Of a stretch of DNA of 64,000 nucleotides, positions 21,728 through 64,000 are shown piece by piece. The position numbers and the translations under genes were made by a program. The notes beneath the pieces are model-generated. The model worked only from the letters and a program-made list of their open reading frames with translations. It was not told the DNA's origin and made no database searches. Positions within the stretch are counted from its first letter, which is position 1; each line of letters starts with the position of its first letter. The stretch is from Vermamoeba vermiformis (Eukaryota): the NCBI GenBank assembly GCA_045837725.1, contig JBEWZL010000073.1, positions 124,001-188,000 of the forward strand, in the 5' to 3' direction.

Positions 21728-22952
21728 TTGCTTGTAATTACCTTAAAATATAAGTGGTGTTCTTGGACCGTTACTCTTGGTGAATTGTTAAATCAGTATC
21801 ACAACGTGCTGCATATTAAATTGCGGTACAAAATGTTGTCACTCTGTTGCGGGCGAAAAAATGTGTTATTTTTCATGAAAAGCTGATCTGATTCAGTAAG
21901 GGACCACGTGCATATTCGCGTTAATCAGTAATACGGATGCGCATTAGTTCAAGTGGTGGATTTTGACCAACGGAATATGGTCAAGAAATTGATCACCGGG
22001 CAATATGCACCGCTTGCCCTTCGGAAAGCAAAATTTCTAGACAACAATGCGTAACTCACATTCTCAGCCTGGTACAACACTCAATAACGATTGTCTTTCA
22101 TTGGCGTGCTTGTCGTGGTGTGTTCTAGAGGGAGCAATCGTTGTTCGGCAAAACCAACCGTAAACAAAACACCTTGTGCTCCTATTCACCATTGGTTCGT
22201 GCTCGACGATGCTTCGCAGTATGGAGTATATCGATTTGTTGTCATAGACGCATTAGTTAGAACACAAAATCACCAGATCGAGAACAAACCTTGAAAAAAA
22301 TTCGTTTTTTAAAGATCCTGCTGATGATAAATTTTGGCTCACGTTAATCCTTAATGGCGAATGGACGGAGAGTGATCACGATTGTATTCAGAAGTTATTG
22401 TCTGCAGAGTCGTGGAAAAGAAATAGGCGATATAGCTATTTTAAAATTCCTGACGACACTCTGTACAAACAGAAGAAGAAATTAACGTTGTATTTTAAAG
22501 AATAATAGGAATAAAATTGGCATTAAAGATAAAAAAAAAAAAAAAAAATTCGTTTTGGTAAAGAGTGTCATAGTAAAGCGCTTTGCTCATATAAAAGCTT
22601 CTTTTCGCTTTCAGCTCAGAACGGAGCACTTTGAAATGTATCTATAGATCTCTGTTTGTTCTCTTACGGATTGTTGCCGCTCTAAGTTCTGCGTACAGTT
22701 AATTAAATCGACCTTAATCAGCAAGCTTTAATGCCACGATATTAACGTATATTGAATGCCATTTGGCGATAAAGGCTTGTTAAAACGATTTGAACTTTAC
22801 GCATAAGTAAATCGGTTTTAAACGCTTTGTATTACCTCTTATTGACCACTTTTACGCGTCATTATTATGCACTCAAGGTGTTTAAAAAGATGACCCTTGC
22901 GAATGTGCAACGCAAAATAGTGTCGCAAAGGGTTGGATTCGAAAAGATGGTG

Positions 22953-51191: not shown

Positions 51192-52833
51192 TTACTTCTT
51201 TTGATAGGAGGAAATTATGGATGCCAAATTTTCATTTAGAACTATTGGTAATTTCGGGAATGTTTCTTGAAGTTTGCGCCATGATCCTTCTTTGCAGATG
51301 ATTGTTTTTGGAGCAGTCAGTCTTCCTCTTGCATAAAAATTTGCAAATGACTCACAAGTATCCAGAAGGTCATTTTTAAGTAATTCATCCAGTTGACTAG
51401 AGTCTACGTTGCCATCAATTGTTTCCAGATAAACCAAGTGACAGACCTTTGCAGGATCATAAAATATTCCATAGTTGCCTAAGCTAGTACCCAGAATTGA
51501 AAGTGTCTTTACCAAAGACTCCCTGTAATTGGCAACTGGTATTTGTTCACCAAAAAAATTGACCATGTCAGAAACCCTTCCGAAAAATTCAAACACTGGC
51601 ATTTTGTTCTTGTAGAAGTCAACTATTTGGATGTAATCATCAGTTCGATACCGATAAAGCCCTGCATAGGTAGTAATTATCATCAAATATACTTTTCCAA
51701 GCTCTGCATCATATATTTGCTTAATAATCCCAGTATCCTTTTCTTGCAATTCAACAAAAATTTTTCTAGGAAGGAATACATATCGGGGGATGGGTTCTTC
51801 TAGAAAAATGTTCACTCCAATTATATCAGACTCCGTAGAACCAAACATTGGGCTCCAGATGAATACCCCAGGAGCAAGCTTCAGAAGATGAGCCTCCCAG
51901 TATTTTCCAGCCCTTGAGGTGCTGGCCATAATCATCTTTAAATTTGGCTGATATTGTGTCAATTAATTGATTCAATCATTATCATTATTACTTTCTTACC
52001 CAAATATGCTTGGCAAATCCATCCTGTTGAAGAGACTCTCTAATTTCATCTGCCCGTTTGGGATCAGGAACAGCCAAAAAATCTTTCAGAGGACCTTCAG
52101 GCAACTCCTCATTTATGCTTGCTGTTCCATTTTTAATGTCTTCAATAAGAGAGGATGCATTGTCCTTAATATATGTTATAAATGAAATTATGCTGGTGAT
52201 AAATGTTGAACCAATCATTTGCAAGTCAGACCTTCGCAGTACACATAGAGCGCTAAGATAGCTTAAGTGTTTTTGAAGCTTATCATTCATATAAAGATCA
52301 CGAGGAACTGCTAACTTCCATGAATCTGAAGGCGTCATGCAAATCTTGTACATTGTCATCTCCGTAGTGTACCATACTCGTGAAGGGTTAACAGGCTTGG
52401 ATTTAAAAAGAACATGAGTGCAACCCTCAAGTGAAAAATTAGTTTTTGAAGTTAGCTCTTGAAGAGACAAAGCCAAATTCTGAAACTTTGTAGAGTATTG
52501 AACATTTGGGAAAATTTTCCGTTGCCCTGTGGTTCCTCCAGTACAAATAAAATAATCAACCTTTTCTGGAACCATTATATTCTCCTCTCCAGAGAGCATT
52601 CTATCAACCAAAGGGCGGTATGTTTCCTCATATGCTGTTAGAGGAACTTGTTGATATTCTTCAATTGTGGTGATATGGTTTATTCCAAGCTGCTTTCCAA
52701 GAGTTGTCGATTTTCCATGTCTTAAAATATGAGACAGTGTTTGTTGAACAACCGCTTCAATATTTGCAATATCTTCATCATAAACGCTGCGAGTGCAACT
52801 AGCTGCTGCCCAAGAGTCAAAGGCAATTGACAT
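51192..52833 (-). CDS. GH3-family acyl-acid amido synthetase, one short intron near 51960-52000
   Basis: QQVPL..YE, TGGTTGQRKIFP (motif I), FGSTE (motif II), TT.AGLYRYRTDD (motif III), F.GR. Confidence 0.9.
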
Positions 52834-52956
52834 CGTTGTTTTTGTTTGTATAATTATAAGGTTTTTCTCTTATTATTACTGGAAAATATTTTATTATTAG
52901 TTGCTTCACTTAAAAAAGGCATGGCTAGTATTTAATTACCACAAAGTTGTGAAAAC

Positions 52957-53358
52957 ATGAGCCCCAGCCAAATTCTTGCATTACTAGCAATTTCTTTTTT
53001 TGATTTGCTTGGAGCAGTTGCACTACTACTAAATCCAACATATTTTTATGATTGTAATGAACCGAAAGCATTTGAACGTGCAACACGGAGGTTAGCCCTT
53101 CTTCTTATTGGTCAATGTATGTAATTAGTAAATTTTTCTGTTAGTTAAAATGACACTTTAGGCCTTATACCATTAATTGCTATTATGGCAGAAACTACGA
53201 TGTCCTTAATTTGGTTTTACTGCATTTATCACGTTGTTTTTTTGGCTGACAGCATATATGAGTACCTAAAGAAAGGAGGCTTTACCACCTTCAGAAGCAA
53301 TGCAATTTTTCATGGCATATCATCAGTGGTGATTGTAATCATATTTATTTTTACGTAA
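52957..53358 (+). CDS. Small (~118 aa) four-TM membrane protein, one intron; absent from the ORF track
   Basis: MSPSQILALLAISFFDLLGAVALLLNP...GQ, intron gtatgt...tttag, then CLIPLIAIM...YHVVFLAD...FHGISSVVIVIIFIFT*; splices in frame. Confidence 0.65.
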
Positions 53359-53805
53359 AATTGTTTTTCATAGCTCACATTTCATAAAATGAACAATAGG
53401 CAACTACCCCTAGGTTTTTTATGTAAGCTTCACGCTCTAGGGGTATTTCAGAACGAGGACTTCGAATTTGATGGTATTTTTAGGATAGGAAATTTTGCCT
53501 TAGGTTCTATGGATCCGGTCCCTATCCTAAATCTGCCCAAAAAATCGATTTTTTTTGCTGGAAGTACGGGATATTCTTAGATATATTATTTCCAACAACT
53601 TTTGTCTTAAAGATGTTTCACTCTTCAATAAATTTTTTTGGTGATCATGTTTTGAATGCAACCGGTAATAACTACTTGCATTTATTATAAAGGGCTACCC
53701 CCAACAATTGATTAATGGAAATCCAAATTGACTATTGACAGTCAAAATAAATGAAAAAATTTAAATTTTGCCCAAAACTTAACCTAACTGGCTGAGAAAA
53801 TCCCC

Positions 53806-55527
53806 ATGGCTTTTTTTGGTAATTTGTAATATTTTATCTAATGATTAGCAATCAGTATATTAAAAATTGGGTGCTTATTCCACAAGCCCTAAGGGCTAAA
53901 GATCCCTTGCCAGATGAATTGAAGTTTTTGGAAGAATGGAATGAGTTGCCAGGCTTGGGCAAGCCATCGAAGAATCTTTTTGAATTTGGAGATTTCCAAT
54001 ACTTAAGTAATTGACTCTCTGTTCAAATTAGTTTGATATTATAACATTTTATAGATCATGGTGCATTTGGAGTTGTTCCCCTGGATATTTTGAAGAAAAT
54101 GGAAAGACTTGAAAAAATTAGGGTTGGCCTCCATAACTTTAAAATGAAAATCTAATTTATCTTGTAGAATGCCAATCCTTTTAAATTTCAAAACTACTAT
54201 CTGCCATTGCTTCTTAGTTATGGCATTGCAGCATTGAGCTCGTTTGTGAAATCAGAGCCAGAATTAACTTTCTTTTGCGAGTCTGTTTGTAATGGTAAGA
54301 TACTTGAGCCTTACAGTATTAAACCAACATTTTAAGGCATTTATAACTGCTTGATGACCATTATGCAACAAAAAGCTAACCCAAGGGTGGCTTATGTCAA
54401 AGGATCTTATGGTAGGTAATCCATTTTTTTTTAATTTTTATTCTAATATCAAGTATATAAGTTGGGCTGGCATCAACTCTGGAGAGCTTAGCAGCAAAAA
54501 AAATGATTCAATTGACTCCCTTTGAATCTCAACAGCAAATTGACAGCAGCAAACTTTGTTCCTTTATTCAATGTAACAACATTGATGTACTTGTGCTTGA
54601 ACACATAACAAATACAACTGGAGTTCTTAATAACGTTAAAGATCTTGTTAATCAAGTCAAATCTCAGTAATTAATTCACTGTAGTCAGTAATTGTGTGCT
54701 AACAAATGTTTAAGGGGAGTAATAACCATTATTGACGGTGCTCACGCCCCTGGAAACATTGACCTTGACATTGCTGGCATCAATGCAGATTTTTATGTGG
54801 GATCATGTTATAAATGGCTGTTCAGCCTTCAAGTAAAGTAAAATCCAAGGCTACCTTATCTAACTTTGCTTAATAGGGCTGCTCGTTTGTTTGCATAAAC
54901 AAAGATTGGCAAAATAAGGTACTTGTATTTGGTTTTTAAATCTCTATCTGACCTTTATTTTTCAAGTTCTCTCCACCATTTGATACTTTCATGAAGATAA
55001 ACCAGCTCATTCCTTTTTACTGGAGAGGAGGAATAAATTATATGCCCTATATCTCTTGTATTTGTGGTATTAGCATGCTTAAACAGTATGGAATCCCTCA
55101 AGTTTGGCAGCATATTAAAGAAGTTAAGAACTCAATTGGTAAGTTATACCTCCTCTTATGAGATAATTATATATTTTAACGGTTTATTAAATGAAGAAAT
55201 CAATTTGACAAAGGAATGGGGAGCAGAAGTAATCAGTGCTAACGAGTTGTCATTTACTGTCCTTAAAGTAAACACTAACTTGAAAAAGGTAAGTTTGTCA
55301 AAATAAAAGTGTTTGATTAACTATTTGTCAAGAACTTAAACCTAGGAGTCTGCGCTCTTGAGATGACTGGCATTATTGCAGAAAAGCTGTCTTCTCAGAT
55401 TTCAATGACAATTCCTAGCTTTTCTGAGGTTTTAGTTCGAATCTCTCTGAGTATTTACAGTACTGCAGATGACGTAAGTCAGATCCAGGATTCCTTCCTG
55501 GAAATTGTAAAGCAATTTGAAAATTAG
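53806..55527 (+). CDS. PLP-dependent class V enzyme (Egt2 C-S lyase / L-cysteine desulfhydrase / isopenicillin N epimerase-like), about 10 introns
   Basis: YLNHGAFG..P, EHIT..TG, IIDGAHAPG...DI....ADFYVGSCYKWL, C-terminal VRISL.IY. Confidence 0.85.
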
Positions 55528-55682
55528 AAAGTTATAGCAGCAATAAAACTAGAACCATGTGCAAGTAAGATTTGATTGTTAGGGTTTATTGTCCTTATGA
55601 AATTTCAAATTTCATGAAACACAACTTGCAGACTATACGTACAAAATATTGCGCACTGGCACTGTGACGACTACAATTTATT

Positions 55683-56652
55683 TTACAAATCGACTGGAAT
55701 TGTTTTTGATGTGAAGTATGCTAATGTGAGGATGAGACCCTTTTCCAGTGGTATTTTTGGTGACCATTGCAGGAGTGATTTTGCTTTGTCAATATTTGGG
55801 CGTCTCATTTTTGGGTCATCGGGTCTAATGACTGGGTCTAAAAATGTGAAGGTTGACTTTGAATGGGTAAGGTCCACAATAATATTAGCTATTTGTAAAA
55901 TGGAGAGCTCCCCATCTGGGTTTCCCAGGTTCACCGGAGTGCTTTCATTTGATTGAGCAAGCAACCATAGCCCCTCTACAATATCACTTACATAGGTGAA
56001 GCTCCTTGTTTGGTTGCCGGTTCCGTAGATAGCAAGTGGTTTATCAGTGAGGGCTTGTTTTATAAATGCAGGGACAACTCTACCATCATCTATGTTCATT
56101 CTAGGCCCAAATGTATTAAATATACGGGCTATTCTTGTTTTAAGATCAAAAGTTCGATGGTATGCCATAGTAATGGCTTCAGCATATCTTTTACTTTCAT
56201 CATAACACGACCTTATGCCAATGGGATTGACATTTCCCCAATAATCTTCTGATTGAGGATGAAGGATCGGATCTCCATACACTTCTGAGGTTGAAGTAAG
56301 AACAAATATGGCGCTATTCTTTTTGGCAATCTCCAACATTGCTTGAGTGCCTTCCGACCCCACTTGCAATGTTTCAATGGGAAAAAGCATGTAATATTTT
56401 GGGCTTGCAAAACTAGCAAGATGAAAAACAAAGTCAAGCTTTCCTAAACTCTTCTATTACAGAGCTGCTAAGATTGCATACATCTGCTTTGATAAAAGTA
56501 AAGAGAGGATTGGTAAGCAAATGTGAAATATTATCTTCTGTTGAGCATGCCAGATTATCCAGAACTGTCACTTTATGCCCTAGGCCTAACAAGAATTCTG
56601 CCAAATGTGAACCAATGAAACCAGCACCTCCACTTATTAAGGAAACATGCAT
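55683..56652 (-). CDS. UXS1: UDP-glucuronate decarboxylase (UDP-xylose synthase) with a single frameshift near 56443-56447
   Basis: GGAGFIGSHL, FHLAS.ASP..Y, STSEVYGDP..HPQ.E.YWGNVNPIG.RSCYDESKR, RIFNTFGPRM..DDGRVV, DDP..R.P. Confidence 0.88.
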
Positions 56653-56750
56653 TCTATTCTTATGTTTTTAATTAAAAATGGATCCAGACAAAAACTTTTC
56701 CTATTTTCTCCCCAAAATTGCATTGGCCAGGGACAATTCTCAAATATATA

Positions 56751-57392
56751 ATGACTAGTACAATAAATTGGCTGGATGTCAAAGAATTACAAGTTCAGGA
56801 GGGAACTTGCTATGAAGAAATCAGGCGATTTTATTTCGAGTATCTGTCAAAACCACATCCTATGCTAGGAAGATCTGGAGCAGTATGCCCTTTTATGCCA
56901 TTATCATTAAAGTTTAACAAAGTGAAAACCCTGGTTTGGAAAAAGCAGGAATTTGATGAACAAGAGATTTTGGAGTTAATGCAAGAAGTATTGGATGAGC
57001 TTAAACGGTGCACGATTGACTGTGCAATGGTGGTTTTCTTTCCAAATATTGTTAATACTCAAGATATTGCTTTATTTCAAGAGAAGTACAAATCTCTGGC
57101 TGTCGGAAAAGGATTGATGATTGGGGAGTTTTTTGAATCAAATCCGTCCCCTGGTTTGCACAATAAACATTGGCAGCCTCTTCAGAGCAAAGTACCTTGC
57201 TTGGCCTTTCGGAAAATGGTCAAGGAAGATTTTGCATTCATGCTTAAACCATCTTATCGGTGGTCACAAAAAGTGGTTTACATTGCTTCTTACTTCCTTA
57301 CAATGCATTCAACTGCTATCAAAAGGGTAATAATATTCGCATGCACTCTTTATTTATTTTATTTTCTTGGTTGTTTGTTATCAGTTCAGTAA
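56751..57392 (+). CDS. DUF6875-like protein with C-terminal TM (paralogue 2)
   Basis: YLSKPHPMLGRSGAVCPFMPLS, GLMIGEFF...SPGLHN..W.PLQSKVPCLAFRKMVKED; collinear with 27590-28225. Confidence 0.7.
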   Translation: MTSTINWLDVKELQVQEGTCYEEIRRFYFEYLSKPHPMLGRSGAVCPFMPLSLKFNKVKTLVWKKQEFDEQEILELMQEVLDELKRCTIDCAMVVFFPNIVNTQDIALFQEKYKSLAVGKGLMIGEFFESNPSPGLHNKHWQPLQSKVPCLAFRKMVKEDFAFMLKPSYRWSQKVVYIASYFLTMHSTAIKRVIIFACTLYLFYFLGCLLSVQ

Positions 57393-57834: not shown

Positions 57835-58517
57835 ACATAGTGCTGTTCTATTCCTAGTAATAATAATTATTATTTTAATTCTTTTTTTTCCTCTCCTTGC
57901 TTTTTCCCTTTCTTCTTTTTTTCTCTTTCCGTATATATATATATAAAAAAAGGTTTTTTTTTTTGGAAAAAAATTTGGTTCATGAAAAAAAATGAAAGCA
58001 GTTTGTTTCATGAAAGAATAACCCAGTTTTGGTTTGAATGGGTAGATAAAAAATGCCTGAAATTACACTGCTATTGATGTAAAATAATTAATTACCCAAC
58101 ATCATAATTGTTAATTATAAATTAGCATAGCTGCTTAATATAATAAGTATGGTGCTTTTCTGCCGAGTCCCTGAAAACAAGTTGGAATTTAAGCGTTAAT
58201 TAATTATTCGTAGCATATTACTTGGATATTGCAGCAATAAATATTAACAAAAGATAGTTGTTGACTCTAAAATGAAGAAAAAATTAAGCTTATTTAATTG
58301 AAACCAACAACGACCAATCATGATCTGTTTAGATCCAAAAATTGCCTATTCTTTTTGCCGGGCAATTCAAAAAATTGCTAAGCCCTAAAAAATTACAAAA
58401 ATTTGGCATGGTTCACCCTGTAATTTAGTACAAGTTCAAACAAGACTATCACATCCAAAAAAATAATGGAAAAATAAACAAAAATTAACCACCCATCCAA
58501 ATAATAAGTCCGACACA

Positions 58518-58872
58518 GGATGTATTCATAGGGAGGAATTTGGCCGGGCCCTAACCCATCCAAGTGTCGAAGTCACGTTGAGGTGACTGACACGACCAAA
58601 ACCATGTGATTCATCAATAGAAAGGTTGCAGGCATCAAGGCGACACCCCTCCATAAAGGAGACCGTACAACAAAAGAGTGTCCGCTACGGCAAGTGACAA
58701 GTCACTTTCTAGCCATCCAACTCAGTGCCAGTGAGAGTGCTGTTCCGAACCAGCGGTGTTGCCGAGGCAACACGACCTCCAGACGATACTCTGACCCACA
58801 TCGTCGAGAATCAGCGCGTAACTTTCTCATTGTAGCGGCGCTAAGGCTTCACCCTTAGACGCCGGATGTATT
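58518..58872. ncRNA. Candidate structured RNA or short retroposed element, GC-rich, flanked by GGATGTATT direct repeats
   Basis: Many hairpins (58564-58593, 58756-58773, 58782-58805, 58837-58863) and a long-range helix CCGCTAC/GTAGCGG; no ORF. Confidence 0.5.
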
Positions 58873-58919
58873 ACAAACAGTATTTATTATACTACCTACA
58901 GCAAGTTTGTTAACAAATT

Positions 58920-61900
58920 CTATAGTTTAAGCTTACGACAAACAGGTTTGTGTGTGTTCTTACAAGTACTGCACAGAAAAATTGGTCTTTTTTTGTCGGA
59001 GCTGCATTTCCAACATACTGTGCTAATTTGCTTTCGTTTACGTGGGTTGCACGTTAGGCAAAAACCATTGACTCGTCTTTCAAAGACATCTTCGCTCTGA
59101 ACTCGCACATGAGAAGAGAGACTTTTTGATTTCAGATCTTTTGCGACAATTATTCTTCGGGTTCTGAGAGATCTGTGTCTAGTTAACAGAGATGCATTTT
59201 TCTTGTTGCGTGCAGACTGCTCTTGACTAAGTTCATCCTTTAAAATTTGCAAGAAATCTCGAAATTGATCTTCGTCATCGTTCTGAACTTTCTTATAGTA
59301 GCGATAGCACTGGTATGAATTCCAAGTGATTATATTTATAATATTTTCCCATACTACTTGTGTCCATTTTGTTAATCTGAATGGCCAATCAAACGTATGA
59401 ATTTGTCTTGCCGCCTCGTCGACAAATCCTTTGGTCTTTGTGTATTCTTGGACAATAAGTGTCTTTGTACTCTGCATTTACAACTAAATTAGTAACTTAA
59501 TGATGCAAGCATAAGAAGCTTACTGAAGTTGACGGTACTCCTTGACACAGATCTGTCGCGGATGATGACGCTGCAATGAAATTAGATAAACACTTTGATT
59601 AATATTGAACTAACCATCGACGTAATTGGAATAGAGATTCATAATTGCATTGTTATCGCGGAAAGAGTGAGCGATAATCGGACCAGCAGTGCCTTCTTTT
59701 TCAAACGTCAAGTGTTGCCCTGGTTCTTGTAGAGGATTTTGCAAAGTACCAAATATATATGAAGGAGCATTTTTCTTTGCCGACAACAAGAATTTAATGC
59801 CTTGTTCATCCAAAATAGTAGCCGTCTCTTCCGCACCCCATTTGCTATCTGTTATAATCACGTGGCCTGGCTTGTGATTGTTCAATTTCTCGGCTAGCTC
59901 TAACAGCTGATATTTAGGAGGCAGACATAGACCCAAGAATATATCGAAGTCCCAAATGTAGTAAGATTCATCGGCGGCCAAGTAGAGTAAGACACCGTTT
60001 GGATGTGGCTTGCTTGGAATGAATTGCTGAGTTACGTTAGTTAAAATGTATTATCTAACGATAACAAGTACTTACTCGGGCATAAAAGCGGCCCAAAAAC
60101 GGCAAGATGGTTTCATCAAAGGTAATTTTTTGAGATGGAGACCAATTATTTTGGCATCGTTGAGCTACTTCTTGAGTAACTTTGTCAATATCAAAGTGGA
60201 AATAATGCATAATCTGTTCGAATCGATCTCGGCCCATTTTTGACGATATCCATTCGTTGCCATACAAGGGATCTTTGATAGTCCAGTAATCTCTGAGGCG
60301 ACGACCTTTAACACAACGACTTGCGATACCAATGGCAATGAATATATCAAATTCTGGCAGCGTAAGTGGTTTCCAATTTGTTCTTTGCTTTTGAAAAGTA
60401 ACTTTGTCTTCTTCGGAAGGTTCAAACTCGGTACTAAAATATTCTTCCAAGCATGCTTTACGTTTGAAACCCAACTTGGTACCGTTAGCAATCCTAATTG
60501 TGATCAGAATGTTTGTTTTCTCGTTAGCTTATGTAATATTTACTTTGTATTTTTGTGTCGGCCAAAGTGAGGTGAGTGAAACGCATGCGTTCTTGCATAA
60601 CTTCAGAAAATGAAAGACTGGCATAACGGTTTATATCTTCGACCATCTGTAAACGGGTTTGCTCTGCGGTATTCATTAATTCTGAGAATATTCAACACTC
60701 GAATGAATGATATGTACCAGGCAAAAAGCGCGAAAAGATGCTAGCGTTGGTCATAGGCTGCTTATTGGTGGGCCCGCTAACCAACGTACAAAAGGAGGTA
60801 CGAACAAAACCTTTACTTGTTTTATCTCGTATTTGCCAACCTTGATTGGATAGTGCATGCGGAGATTGGAAGTACTTATTCATTATTAATAGTGCATTTG
60901 CCCGAATGTCCGACTCGCATATCCAATTTGTTTGCACCTTCTTATTTTTCCAATCGATGAGCCATTCCCATAGATCCTAGCCAAAATAAGACAAACATTC
61001 GATTATCTCGCATACGTACATTATGGAAGCGTACTTTGTAAATGCACTTGATTTGCTCAAGAGCTATTTTGCTTCCCGGTGCCACTTTATCCACCATAAG
61101 GAGATCGTCGGTTACAGCCTTAACAACAATATGCGAGTCTGGCAGCTGCCACTCCTTATCTATCGAAGGTGTCTGAAGCTTTGGTTGGCCTTTTTCCAAT
61201 TGCTTGGGTTCTTAACGGTGCATTAGAATTAAATTAGCCGCGTTGCACTTACTTTTTTTAGGAGGAGCAATTAAGTTGTCTTCTGTTTCCAACAGGTTGC
61301 ATGCGACACTGATTTTACGTTTCCTTGTTTGCATCGTACAGGAAGCAGGAACGGCAGTCTTCAACGGAAATTGAATGCCGACTTCGGCTTGTTTAATGTA
61401 AACCACTGCACTGGCAGAGCAAACACCACCACTTAACTGCGAAAGAATAGCAACACGCTCCTAATTGACATTTAGTCCAAGATCGCTTGTTGGAAAAAAC
61501 ATACCCGTGTAACTTTAGCATCATTATAATTGTTCCAATGTAAAGCACAGCGTTCGTTGACAACAACTCCATAATGTCCATTATTGTGAGTTTTTCCATC
61601 GTGCCAAATTACACCATAAAGTAGGTACAAAGTTCCTTCAAAGTGAACGGATGTTTCGATTGTCAAACGTCGAACTTGCTTGTGTTCATCGAGCTCGGAG
61701 AAACGATTGATTCGAATCAATAACAGTTTTGGGTGGTTCAACACCTGTTTGCGTAATTGGCAATCCTTTTTATCATTAGATCGAGTACTTCGTTAACAAA
61801 CATTGATAATAATTACCTTTGCTTGATATTCTACCACTTCCAGAGCAAAAAAATCGTCAATTCCTTGTTGAACACTCTGAATGGATGGCTTAAAGTAGAT

Positions 61901-62763
61901 GTCGATCCCTGTACTACGTTAGTTATGTGTCACAAAAACAATACGTACAGTTGATCTGCTCCACTCTTCCGTCGTTCACTTGAGTAGAATTTTCATCAAA
62001 TATCGCCGTACTGAATTGGATAGCTAGTTCTCGCCGTGAATCTACCAAATTTAACAAATCTTGTAACAATAGGGTAGCGTCTTGTTGTCCAGCTTGCACA
62101 ATTGTTCGTACATTAGAATCGATAGCGAGAGTAGTTGCTAGTCTTTCAAACAGAACTGCAGCATCGACCGGTTGGCTTTGTTCAACGAATTTGAGTAAAT
62201 ACTCGTTGACTAGCATCGCAATCTCGGTAGTTGACTGTTCAAACAGTTGCTGTAGACACGGGACCTTTGCAATAAGTACCAAGCATACGTGCAGAAAACA
62301 ACGAACACTTGGGTTAACAAACCCAAATTTAAACAGTGGAGACTATCGCAGAAAATTAGGATTACTGCACAAGATTATTATTCTTACCTCAAATTCAAAT
62401 GGATATAATTGTATCTTTCCTATCTTATGCGAAGTAAAATTGCCTCTATTTTTTGGCTGGCTGTAAATTTGTTAGCACAGAAGACAGATCGACCGTCGAA
62501 TTTTCTTACTTTAAAATGTTATTAATGATCGCAATAAATTCATCTTTTGCTATATTGCCGTGATATGCTTCGTAGACCCAGTGAATGTCGCCCATTGAGA
62601 GACCACGCTCATTTGTTTCGTGGAAGTGGATCAACGACTGCATGACATTTGGAGAAGCTACAAAACGTTGTAGATCGGTGTCTGAAGATACGACACATTA
62701 AAAATAATTTTTTAATAGTGCAAATAACATAGCCTTACCCGAAAAGACACGAACAAGCGACAT
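58920..62763 (-). mobile_element. piggyBac-family transposase gene with N-terminal USP (peptidase C19) and chromodomain, multi-exon
   Basis: USP Cys box GFVNPSVRCFLH, QQDA, His box HDG....GHY...NYND; chromo IYKVR..WEWLIDWK...NWICE; transposase GP..SIFSRF, LRDYW, MGRDRFEQI, FDE, FIPSKP, ITD, GFVD; C-terminal Cys-rich domain. Confidence 0.8.
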
Positions 62764-63017
62764 CTGCATCCAAAAAAAATAGTACCTTAGTATTGGCTAA
62801 AAAATGTAGTAAATTACTCTAGAACGTCCAAATTTAATTGAGATTTAAGCCGTTTGGGTAAAATAAAAAATATGAATATTCGATTTCAAATTAGGATCGG
62901 GGTCATTTACCCTACTGAAGGCCGGCAATTGGTGGTATCTTGCAACAACATAAGCGTCGAACTGGTTCAAAACAGAAAATGGCGAATTACTGAAGAAAAA
63001 GCACGTGAGTATTTATT

Positions 63018-64000
63018 TCAAGGAATTCCATCGAGATCACTCAGCTGGTTGAAAGCGGCAATGAATGCATTGGGATCGAACTCAGGAACTTCAAAAAGTC
63101 CAAGCGAGCAAAGCAACACTTCATAATGGAGCTGTAGGTACTGTAGCACCAGATCCAGTGGCTGCTCGCCAAATATTGTCGCCATAGCAAGCCCACCTGC
63201 GTCACTTAACTCTAACTCATCCACAACACCGGCAACTCGTTGGTACAATTCGCAAACTTGGACCAGCAATGGATCTGCAAAACTCAGCGTCAACAAAGTG
63301 CATGATAAAAATGACTCCTCTTACTGATCGTTGGTACTGAATGAGCCAAGGGGTGTTCGCATAGGAATTTATGACGATTGAATAGCTCAAATGTGTAGAA
63401 CGGCTCGACGGAGAATTCAGTGTATGCATCCAGGTTCACTCGACGAACTAACCACGTGCCTAATGAATCATTACACAAATTGACACGGTGCGAAAGTTGC
63501 TTACCGATGAATTGGAAGACATCTTCTTGATATTCAACCGCAATTTCGAGAGGAAGACAGTGATAACAATTGAGCCGCACCATGTCATTCCTTGCTGAAT
63601 CTGCCCCGCGATTGACGACAAATGAGCCATCAATCATCGTGCCGCCCGCCCCACCAACTGTTATAACCCCCTCGCGCCAATTACTCCAATTATTACCAGG
63701 GAAATTTTTCCGAAGTAACATCGACATACAACCTGGAGTGAATTAATCCATCGCGCCGTTTAATTTGCAGAATTGGAATTACCTATTTGACTGAGGCCAT
63801 TAAAGGAGGAGTCTATTGTTAAGCCACCAGTAAATTCTGCTTTGGCCAAATCGAACTTGGAATACAGCTCCCCAACCTGAGCTTTCGTTATTTTGATTGA
63901 AGTGATTAAACGTCAAGATTGTCACTTACTTTAAGATGTTTTCTCGGGCCGAAGATACATGATTTACCAACGGCACATTCATGCAACTGCTCGATGAGCA
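63018..64000 (-). CDS. Unknown spliced protein, 5' end outside the window; probable 1-nt frameshift near 63295
   Basis: ORFs 63290-63727 and 63018-63296 abut in different frames; GT-AG intron at about 63733-63783. Confidence 0.45.

Follow-up and report, generated by a model that had tools for sequence, protein, structure and literature searches.

piggyBac is a standard gene-delivery tool and is viewed as a protein and its DNA ends only. In one published account, ATAT in place of TTAA is rare among piggyBac elements and the untranslated regions (UTRs) have no consensus; ATAT elements are listed in its supplements and may bear on element classification (PMC5381638). Other sources describe Fanzor nucleases in some piggyBacs (PMC13565253), the antigenomic ribozyme of hepatitis delta virus (HDV) as a structured RNA lying immediately after a poly(A) signal (PMC2396440), flavivirus class 1 exoribonuclease-resistant RNAs (xrRNAs) as a three-way junction with a pseudoknot (PMC8374639), and a Dictyostelium DUSE element ~60 nt upstream of noncoding RNA (ncRNA) genes (PMC7919456). 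Literature titles and abstract openings, drawn from outside Repbase and most subscription journals, yielded no natural structured RNA or ribozyme in piggyBac. Here, we analyze a 64,000-nt stretch of the Vermamoeba vermiformis assembly GCA_045837725.1 (contig JBEWZL010000073.1; hereafter the window), in which a GC-rich cassette of about 340 nt adjoins the last exon of a piggyBac-like transposase. The cassette is a conserved, probably RNA-level module of an unusual cargo-bearing piggyBac clade and a member of no tested family.

The cassette slot in piggyBac-like elements

An earlier note, made from the letters of the window, had marked a GC-rich segment in AT-rich surroundings next to the transposase stop codon. 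The contrast in composition holds (in family A, described below, 52% GC inside against 23% and 28% just outside), as does the distance of 47 nt between the segment and the stop codon (58920-58922). Searching the host assembly (a 43-Mb eukaryote with introns, TTAGGG telomeres, and a TERT) with this segment returned nine near-identical matches, and 9/9 sit in piggyBac elements. Four of these, family A, are identical 7.9-kb piggyBac-like elements whose PF13843 transposase is split by introns. Another four, family B, are 1,566-bp elements that lack a transposase and match A over no more than 37 bp at the left end and the final ~606 bp. The ninth match, the window copy, is an A element cut at both ends. 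A target duplication of ATAT was found at 4/4 A right ends and 4/4 B left ends; it is seen on both sides in one B copy, the other three stopping at contig ends. The PF13843 transposase with its Cys-rich C-terminus, the ends starting CCC, and the 4-bp target duplication place these elements among the piggyBac-like transposons. Contigs from three runs contained only short element pieces (95-100% identity), one of them with a new flank at the right end. Five contigs (C200:1, C184:1, C48 end, C19:1, and C18 end) stop exactly at an element right end, probably reflecting assembly breaks. The features of the transposon in the window are as follows.

58435..58522, plus strand: dispersed unrelated repeat, which replaces the last ~257 bp of the element in the window copy
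58518..58526, no strand: left 9-bp repeat, not a target-site duplication; it spans the break point of the truncated copy
58527..58864, minus strand: structured cassette, predicted ncRNA of ~340 nt, with 9 copies and counterparts in families C, D, and F
58864..58872, no strand: right 9-bp repeat, element-internal in family A
58883..58888, minus strand: AATAAA, which presumably serves the transposase mRNA as poly(A) signal
58920..59477, minus strand: last transposase exon, with the third catalytic Asp region and Cys-rich tail (PF13843, E 0.00087)
59610..60474, minus strand: upstream transposase exons separated by short introns (PF13843, E 9.6e-17 and 0.0047)

By-eye inspection, from which the introns were also judged, shows an apparent frameshift near 60450 in the window copy of the transposase.

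The exact 9-bp repeats at 58518-58526 and 58864-58872 had suggested a short interspersed nuclear element (SINE)-like insertion with a target-site duplication. The repeats are present in the window copy, but the pair is absent from 8/8 other copies: the left repeat matches at 7/9 positions in 4/4 A copies, and no repeat occurs in 4/4 B copies. The left repeat arises where the truncated copy in the window abuts another repeat. Since the pair is confined to the window copy, the SINE reading falls, and we put its probability near nil: the segment is never found outside transposons, the true duplication is ATAT, and the segment has no tRNA-like part (a tRNA scan gave 0 in 6 loci), no Rfam match, and no copies independent of transposons. 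The abutting 88-bp repeat has 17 other matches in the assembly, and contig C242 begins with the same 88 bp and then diverges. The repeat was considered as a small nuclear RNA (snRNA) promoter and rejected; it runs into unrelated sequence without an Rfam gene.

A protein search retrieved three further families of 7.8-7.9 kb elements, C (contig C3), D (contig C19), and F (contig C18), to which the last transposase exon is 35-41% identical. In A, C, D, and F, a cassette of 315-350 nt and 48-52% GC lies between the transposase stop and the right end, and the conserved domain ends ~200-260 nt inside that end. Position and orientation of the cassette are fixed in 4/4 related families. On the transposase-sense strand, AATAAA starts 16-23 nt ahead of the cassette in 5/5 versions (A, B, C, D, and F), which places the cassette behind the presumed poly(A) site; the background frequency of AATAAA is 0.3-1.3 per kb, and the spacing was compared with this per-kb frequency only. 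A nested 5.76-kb ATAT-flanked element lies inside the family-F transposase gene (L075:3490-9255, contig C18). Near positions 1500-1700, contigs C236 (L102) and C163 (L103) have a 43-bp match to the GATC-rich subterminal motif of family C, with a short stem and then a run of T behind it; this may be a remnant.

The cassette is also kept where the transposase is missing, in the four copies of B and in D2 (contig C83), a second noncoding derivative that is 1.42 kb long, ATAT-flanked, single copy, and retains the whole cassette. Between A and B, the cassette is more conserved (327/339) than the adjoining terminal DNA (234/261; Fisher p 0.0012). Together with the fixed slot in four families and the covariation between A and C described below, this conservation and the retention in two nonautonomous families support the transposon-associated ncRNA that was the other proposal of the earlier note. 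No host copy of the cassette outside transposons was found in the genome assembly, and no homologue was confirmed in metagenome, viral, or prokaryote contigs. The protein cluster search gave only 4 clusters at E<=1e-30, the atlas search no match above 0.75, and further homologue searches were blank.

More distant piggyBacs of this genome carry other modules in the same slot, none homologous to the studied cassette. A decayed, single-copy piggyBac on contig C210 (L053:2833-2894) has an HDV-like ribozyme fold just behind AATAAA, its first G lying 21 nt after the AATAAA start; a descriptor recovers P1, P2, P3, L3, GG, and the J4/2 cytosine. The fold is followed by ~230 nt of further GC-rich sequence. 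In a clade of three related piggyBac families on contigs C58, C69, and C114, two tandem ~150-nt motifs follow the transposase stop (L071:3551-3850, L072:4795-5080, and L059:3090-3380). These fit a four-way-junction model with a GAAA tetraloop, in which 18/37 pairs are changed on both sides (z -5.84 sense, -4.34 reverse); an Rfam scan over parts of these loci only gave no match there. Contig C301 has a structured-looking stretch after AATAAA. Taken together, these cases suggest that the piggyBacs of this genome habitually carry a folded RNA after the poly(A) signal.

Elsewhere in the window, host genes at 51988-57392 encode a GH3-family protein, an NAD-dependent epimerase, and a DUF6875 protein, and GC content falls from ~45% to 35% near position 22,000.

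Fold, strand, and homology of the cassette

The hairpins listed in the earlier note are present in the window sequence, as is the long-range complementarity of 58682-58688 with 58832-58838; one of them, GACGAT..ATCGTC, needs a base that is unique to the window copy in the copy alignment. Against dinucleotide shuffles, the window segment folds only modestly better than chance (plus strand, z -2.13, 2/100 shuffles as good; minus strand, z -1.76, 4/100). The earlier note had worked on the plus strand, and the comparative evidence leans to the minus strand, on which the predicted elements, listed from the RNA 5' end, are the following.

58836..58864, minus strand: 5' terminal hairpin of 5+6 bp with a purine-rich loop (pair probability 0.64-0.99 in window, A, and B)
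58666..58834, minus strand: middle domain, closed by 58825-58834 with 58666-58675
58797..58816, minus strand: short stem with a GA-rich internal loop, the basis of a post hoc GA-loop pattern
58756..58773, minus strand: 7-bp hairpin with a CUCG loop (in family B, a UUCG loop and two G-U pairs)
58692..58707, minus strand: 6-bp hairpin with a CUUG loop, absent from family C
58649..58661, minus strand: 4-bp hairpin H0, with one compensatory change between A and C
58527..58606, minus strand: conserved 3' domain (RNAalifold and column shuffles)
58602-58606/58527-58531, minus strand: P1a of the 3' domain
58594-58600/58539-58545, minus strand: P1b of the 3' domain
58564-58593, minus strand: P2 of the 3' domain
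58546-58557, minus strand: P3 of the 3' domain, with a GGG loop
58527-58538, minus strand: CUCCC tail of the 3' domain, with a possible loop-tail pseudoknot

Over the 3' domain (columns 58524-58665), RNAalifold gave -32.4 kcal/mol on the sense strand, with 6/39 pairs changed on both sides, and -23.7 kcal/mol on the reverse strand, with 2/32; since three rows out of four hardly differ, the alignment amounts to a single comparison, A versus C. Column shuffling of A and C gave z -3.68 for the sense strand (0/150 shuffles as good) and z -1.66 for the reverse complement (7/150), with subterminal control DNA at z -1.84 and 0.03. The 3' domain thus covaries between A and C. The consensus of D and D2 is likewise more stable in the sense direction (-63.0 versus -53.8). 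In each of A, C, and D, P1b keeps a G-U pair at one shared position, although the tally of G-U pairs in P1b and the UUCG hairpin is biased because the helices were hand-picked on the sense strand. Considering these comparisons, the RNA strand of the cassette is quite likely the transposase-sense strand, which is the minus strand of the window.

Other parts of the fold vary. The helix closing the middle domain has 10 bp with 3 G-U pairs in A, one of which becomes C-G in B, and is a 6-bp helix at the same place in C. Family C also has a hairpin of different sequence where A and B have the 5' terminal hairpin. An 11-nt stretch of the latter (plus strand 58853-58863) matches the left end of family C; by a rough estimate that allows for the comparisons made, the chance of such a match is ~0.1. 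A three-way junction is predicted in A, C, and F, and not in D. The loop-tail pseudoknot was found by hand, has one double change, and competes with P1a.

Sequence homology is detectable inside two pairs of families, A/C and D/F. In a 78-kb search, the 617-bp A end retrieves C (E 1.7e-4); when the cassettes are used by themselves, over 284 kb, the best non-self match of A is C (E 0.23) and that of F is D (E 0.018). Between the pairs, the link consists of position and short motifs, and the homology of D and F to A and C is weaker. A descriptor derived from A and C, which asks for a GGG loop, a CUCCC tail, and a helix of at least 7 bp, recovers D (5/1000 shuffles) and misses F. Besides D, which had already been spotted by eye, it matches one other site only in 520 kb. 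In 284 kb, a GA-loop pattern fitted post hoc on all families matches nothing but cassettes (those of the window copy, A, C, D, D2, and F), each time on the sense strand.

Possible roles of the RNA

For transcription, release, and activity of the cassette, we infer the following course. RNA polymerase II would transcribe the element and continue past the poly(A) site, and 3'-end cleavage would release a downstream RNA that begins at the 5' hairpin and folds. The fold may then act in 3' processing, either by self-cleavage or by blocking 5'-to-3' exonucleases. Whatever the insertion site, transcription of the element would thereby end at a fixed place, and what is left over would be a discrete, uncapped RNA of ~340 nt. 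Our leading account, held tentatively, is that the read-through transcript of the transposase contains a module for 3' processing; within this account, an exonuclease-blocking or stabilizing element and an unrecognized ribozyme stand at about equal odds. The slot and the fold hint at an RNA that these DNA elements themselves produce and employ.

Comparison with known RNA families did not assign the cassette to any of them. Rfam gave no gathering-level match across the 64-kb window, with only chance-level matches around the segment at E<=10 and, for the cassettes of C, D, and F, at E<=5. Hammerhead, twister, twister-sister, pistol, hatchet, and hairpin models had no match in A (E<=10) or in C, D, and F (E<=5). 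The HDV descriptor, for a nested double pseudoknot with the P1.1 GG and a catalytic C in J4/2, recovers the C210 control; for A, B, C, and F the sense strand gave no match, and the only hits in D are poor and fall outside the cassette. By-eye likenesses to a pistol loop, group II domain 5, RNase P/MRP, and C/D boxes were rejected as not conserved across families.

A released RNA might instead serve the transposase or the chromatin-type cargo in trans (as scaffold, guide, or decoy), aiding transposition or silencing escape. This cargo is common to A, C, D, and F (window 61472-64000; L068, L078, L079, and L080) and collinear in all four. It comprises a 2-oxoglutarate/Fe(II) dioxygenase-like region, a Cys/His cluster, an SRA-like domain, and a ubiquitin-specific protease (USP) deubiquitinase. 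Two parts carry annotations in the window.

61472..62282, minus strand: exons of a ubiquitin-specific protease (UCH; PF00443, E 8.2e-9), also present in families C, D, and F
63290..63727, minus strand: SRA-like domain, a weak call from the fold match of the family-D counterpart

The family-D counterpart is a low-confidence model (pLDDT 58) whose top rows are SUVH5/KRYPTONITE SRA domains (Foldseek E 0.13-0.55; VIA Z 5.9). The dioxygenase-like region has an HxD motif by eye and no hidden Markov model (HMM) support, and HMM searches did not confirm either the SRA or the dioxygenase call. As judged from these domain resemblances, the cargo looks like an anti-silencing kit.

Besides the same cargo in all four families, a role in trans draws on the multi-domain size of the cassette, on the two independent noncoding derivatives that keep AATAAA and the whole cassette, on the homology of B to A stopping at the cassette 5' edge, and on the pattern of D versus D2, in which invariant blocks alternate with replaced ones (remainder identity 185/275). 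We consider such a role rather unlikely. No nuclease of the TnpB/IscB/Fanzor type was matched in 21 element frames, and the Fanzor/TnpB domain PF07282 had 0 candidates in the genome assembly (one domain model; the assembly may be incomplete), so that a Fanzor-type system is not supported. Bridge-RNA-type pairing of the cassette with its own element ends gave matches of 5-8 nt, about chance, and since the RNA would stop 200-260 nt short of the element end, it is unlikely to take a guide from the flank. More broadly, this piggyBac lineage might encode a 340-nt RNA excised from the transposase transcript. Such an RNA would either join the DDE transposase or the chromatin-modifying cargo in a ribonucleoprotein or represent a new class of self-cleaving ribozyme. 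This is doubtful; were it true, B and D2 would persist as RNA-only elements, and the lineage would be an RNA-assisted cut-and-paste transposon without a TnpB/Fanzor nuclease.

Several observations weigh against a sense-strand RNA module acting in 3' processing. The cassette is missing from an ATAT-flanked, 160-bp derivative of family C and is scrambled in a B-like remnant on contig C221, and between D and D2 the 3' domain (99/103) is no more conserved than the terminal DNA (233/244). A covariance model from A, B, the window copy, and C finds neither D nor F in 92 kb, and the alignment of D and F has no conserved structure (z -0.52). For A, B, and C together, the strands score alike (z -2.98 sense versus -2.58 reverse). 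Single-sequence folding is weak and strand-mixed (A, z -3.9 inward versus -1.6 sense; D, -0.6 on both), and G-U pairs in several D helices and in the F closing helix favor the opposite strand. No known ribozyme model matches A, C, D, or F, and 340 nt exceeds the needs of a terminator. The HDV-like fold of C210 matches RF00094 at 30 bits (E 0.75), below the cut-off of 50, and is absent from two other scans.

Some of these results, namely the modest z-scores, the alignment of just two lineages for covariation, and the structural failure of D and F, would also fit ordinary GC-rich subterminal DNA, a set of protein-binding sites or a pause element in which hairpins are incidental. We regard this as improbable, given that compensatory and G-U changes occur on one strand, that the A/C descriptor recovers D with a single other site in 520 kb, and that structured modules occupy the same slot of more distant piggyBacs. 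A convergent antisense regulator of the transposase, transcribed from a right-end promoter, has a similarly small chance. The best fold of family A and some G-U pairs of D and F lie on that strand, as do upstream C-rich, DUSE-like, and GATC-rich motifs. Opposed to this, the DUSE-like motif varies in its distance from the conserved start (-39 to -100), this strand gives the poorer consensus fold, and the conserved P1b G-U pairs of A, C, and D turn into A-C mismatches.

An upstream snRNA-type element at a fixed distance was not found at the cassette, unlike at the host U6 and U2 genes (about -65); the five U6 genes examined have a CCCA-type motif ~65 nt upstream, an arrangement that, set beside the Dictyostelium DUSE, suggests an amoebozoan host. 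Two distinct kinds of U2 sequence, which differ in their upstream motifs, are present in the assembly, and U6 also comes in more than one type (L104-L109 and L022-L026), which may reflect paralog sets or two organisms in the assembly. A captured telomerase RNA gene was also weighed, with the host's TTAGGG telomeres and TERT and a 9-mer, CCCUAACCC (58549-58557, plus strand), as template near one end of a 350-nt structured RNA. This is very improbable: the 9-mer occurs in A and B and is missing from the corresponding position in C, D, and F, it lies on the less favored strand, and neither a host copy nor a fixed-distance snRNA promoter was found.

Comparison with known systems

In size range and in its 1.5-repeat template-like 9-mer, the cassette resembles plant and ciliate telomerase RNA, but the template is unconserved, there is no fixed-distance type-3 promoter, and the cassette occurs in transposons only. 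The omega-RNA/reRNA of OMEGA systems (TnpB, IscB, and Fanzor) is likewise a structured RNA near a transposon end, downstream of a gene; here, no such nuclease was found in the element or genome, and the RNA stops short of the element end. The HDV antigenomic ribozyme, to which R2 retrotransposons have HDV-like counterparts, shares the slot behind a poly(A) signal, and an HDV-like fold occupies this slot in the C210 piggyBac, whereas the studied cassette is without an HDV fold and resides in a DNA transposon. As modeled, the 3' domain can be drawn like a class 1 xrRNA, as P1-P2-P3 with a loop-tail pseudoknot; it differs in a longer P1 (7-10 bp), in the lack of P2 in D, in its position at the cassette 3' end, and in having no Rfam match. 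The three modules in this slot are offered as candidates for new ribozymes or exonuclease-resistant RNAs.

The elements themselves share with piggyBac-like transposons (PF13843, DDE_Tnp_1_7) the DDE transposase, the Cys-rich tail, ends starting CCC, and a 4-bp target duplication. They depart from them in using ATAT rather than TTAA, a group presumably labeled 'piggyBacA' in Repbase, and in their introns, their length of 7.8-7.9 kb with cargo, and the structured cassette. A conserved folded RNA, with different modules in the same slot of other piggyBacs, would add an RNA layer to cut-and-paste transposons.
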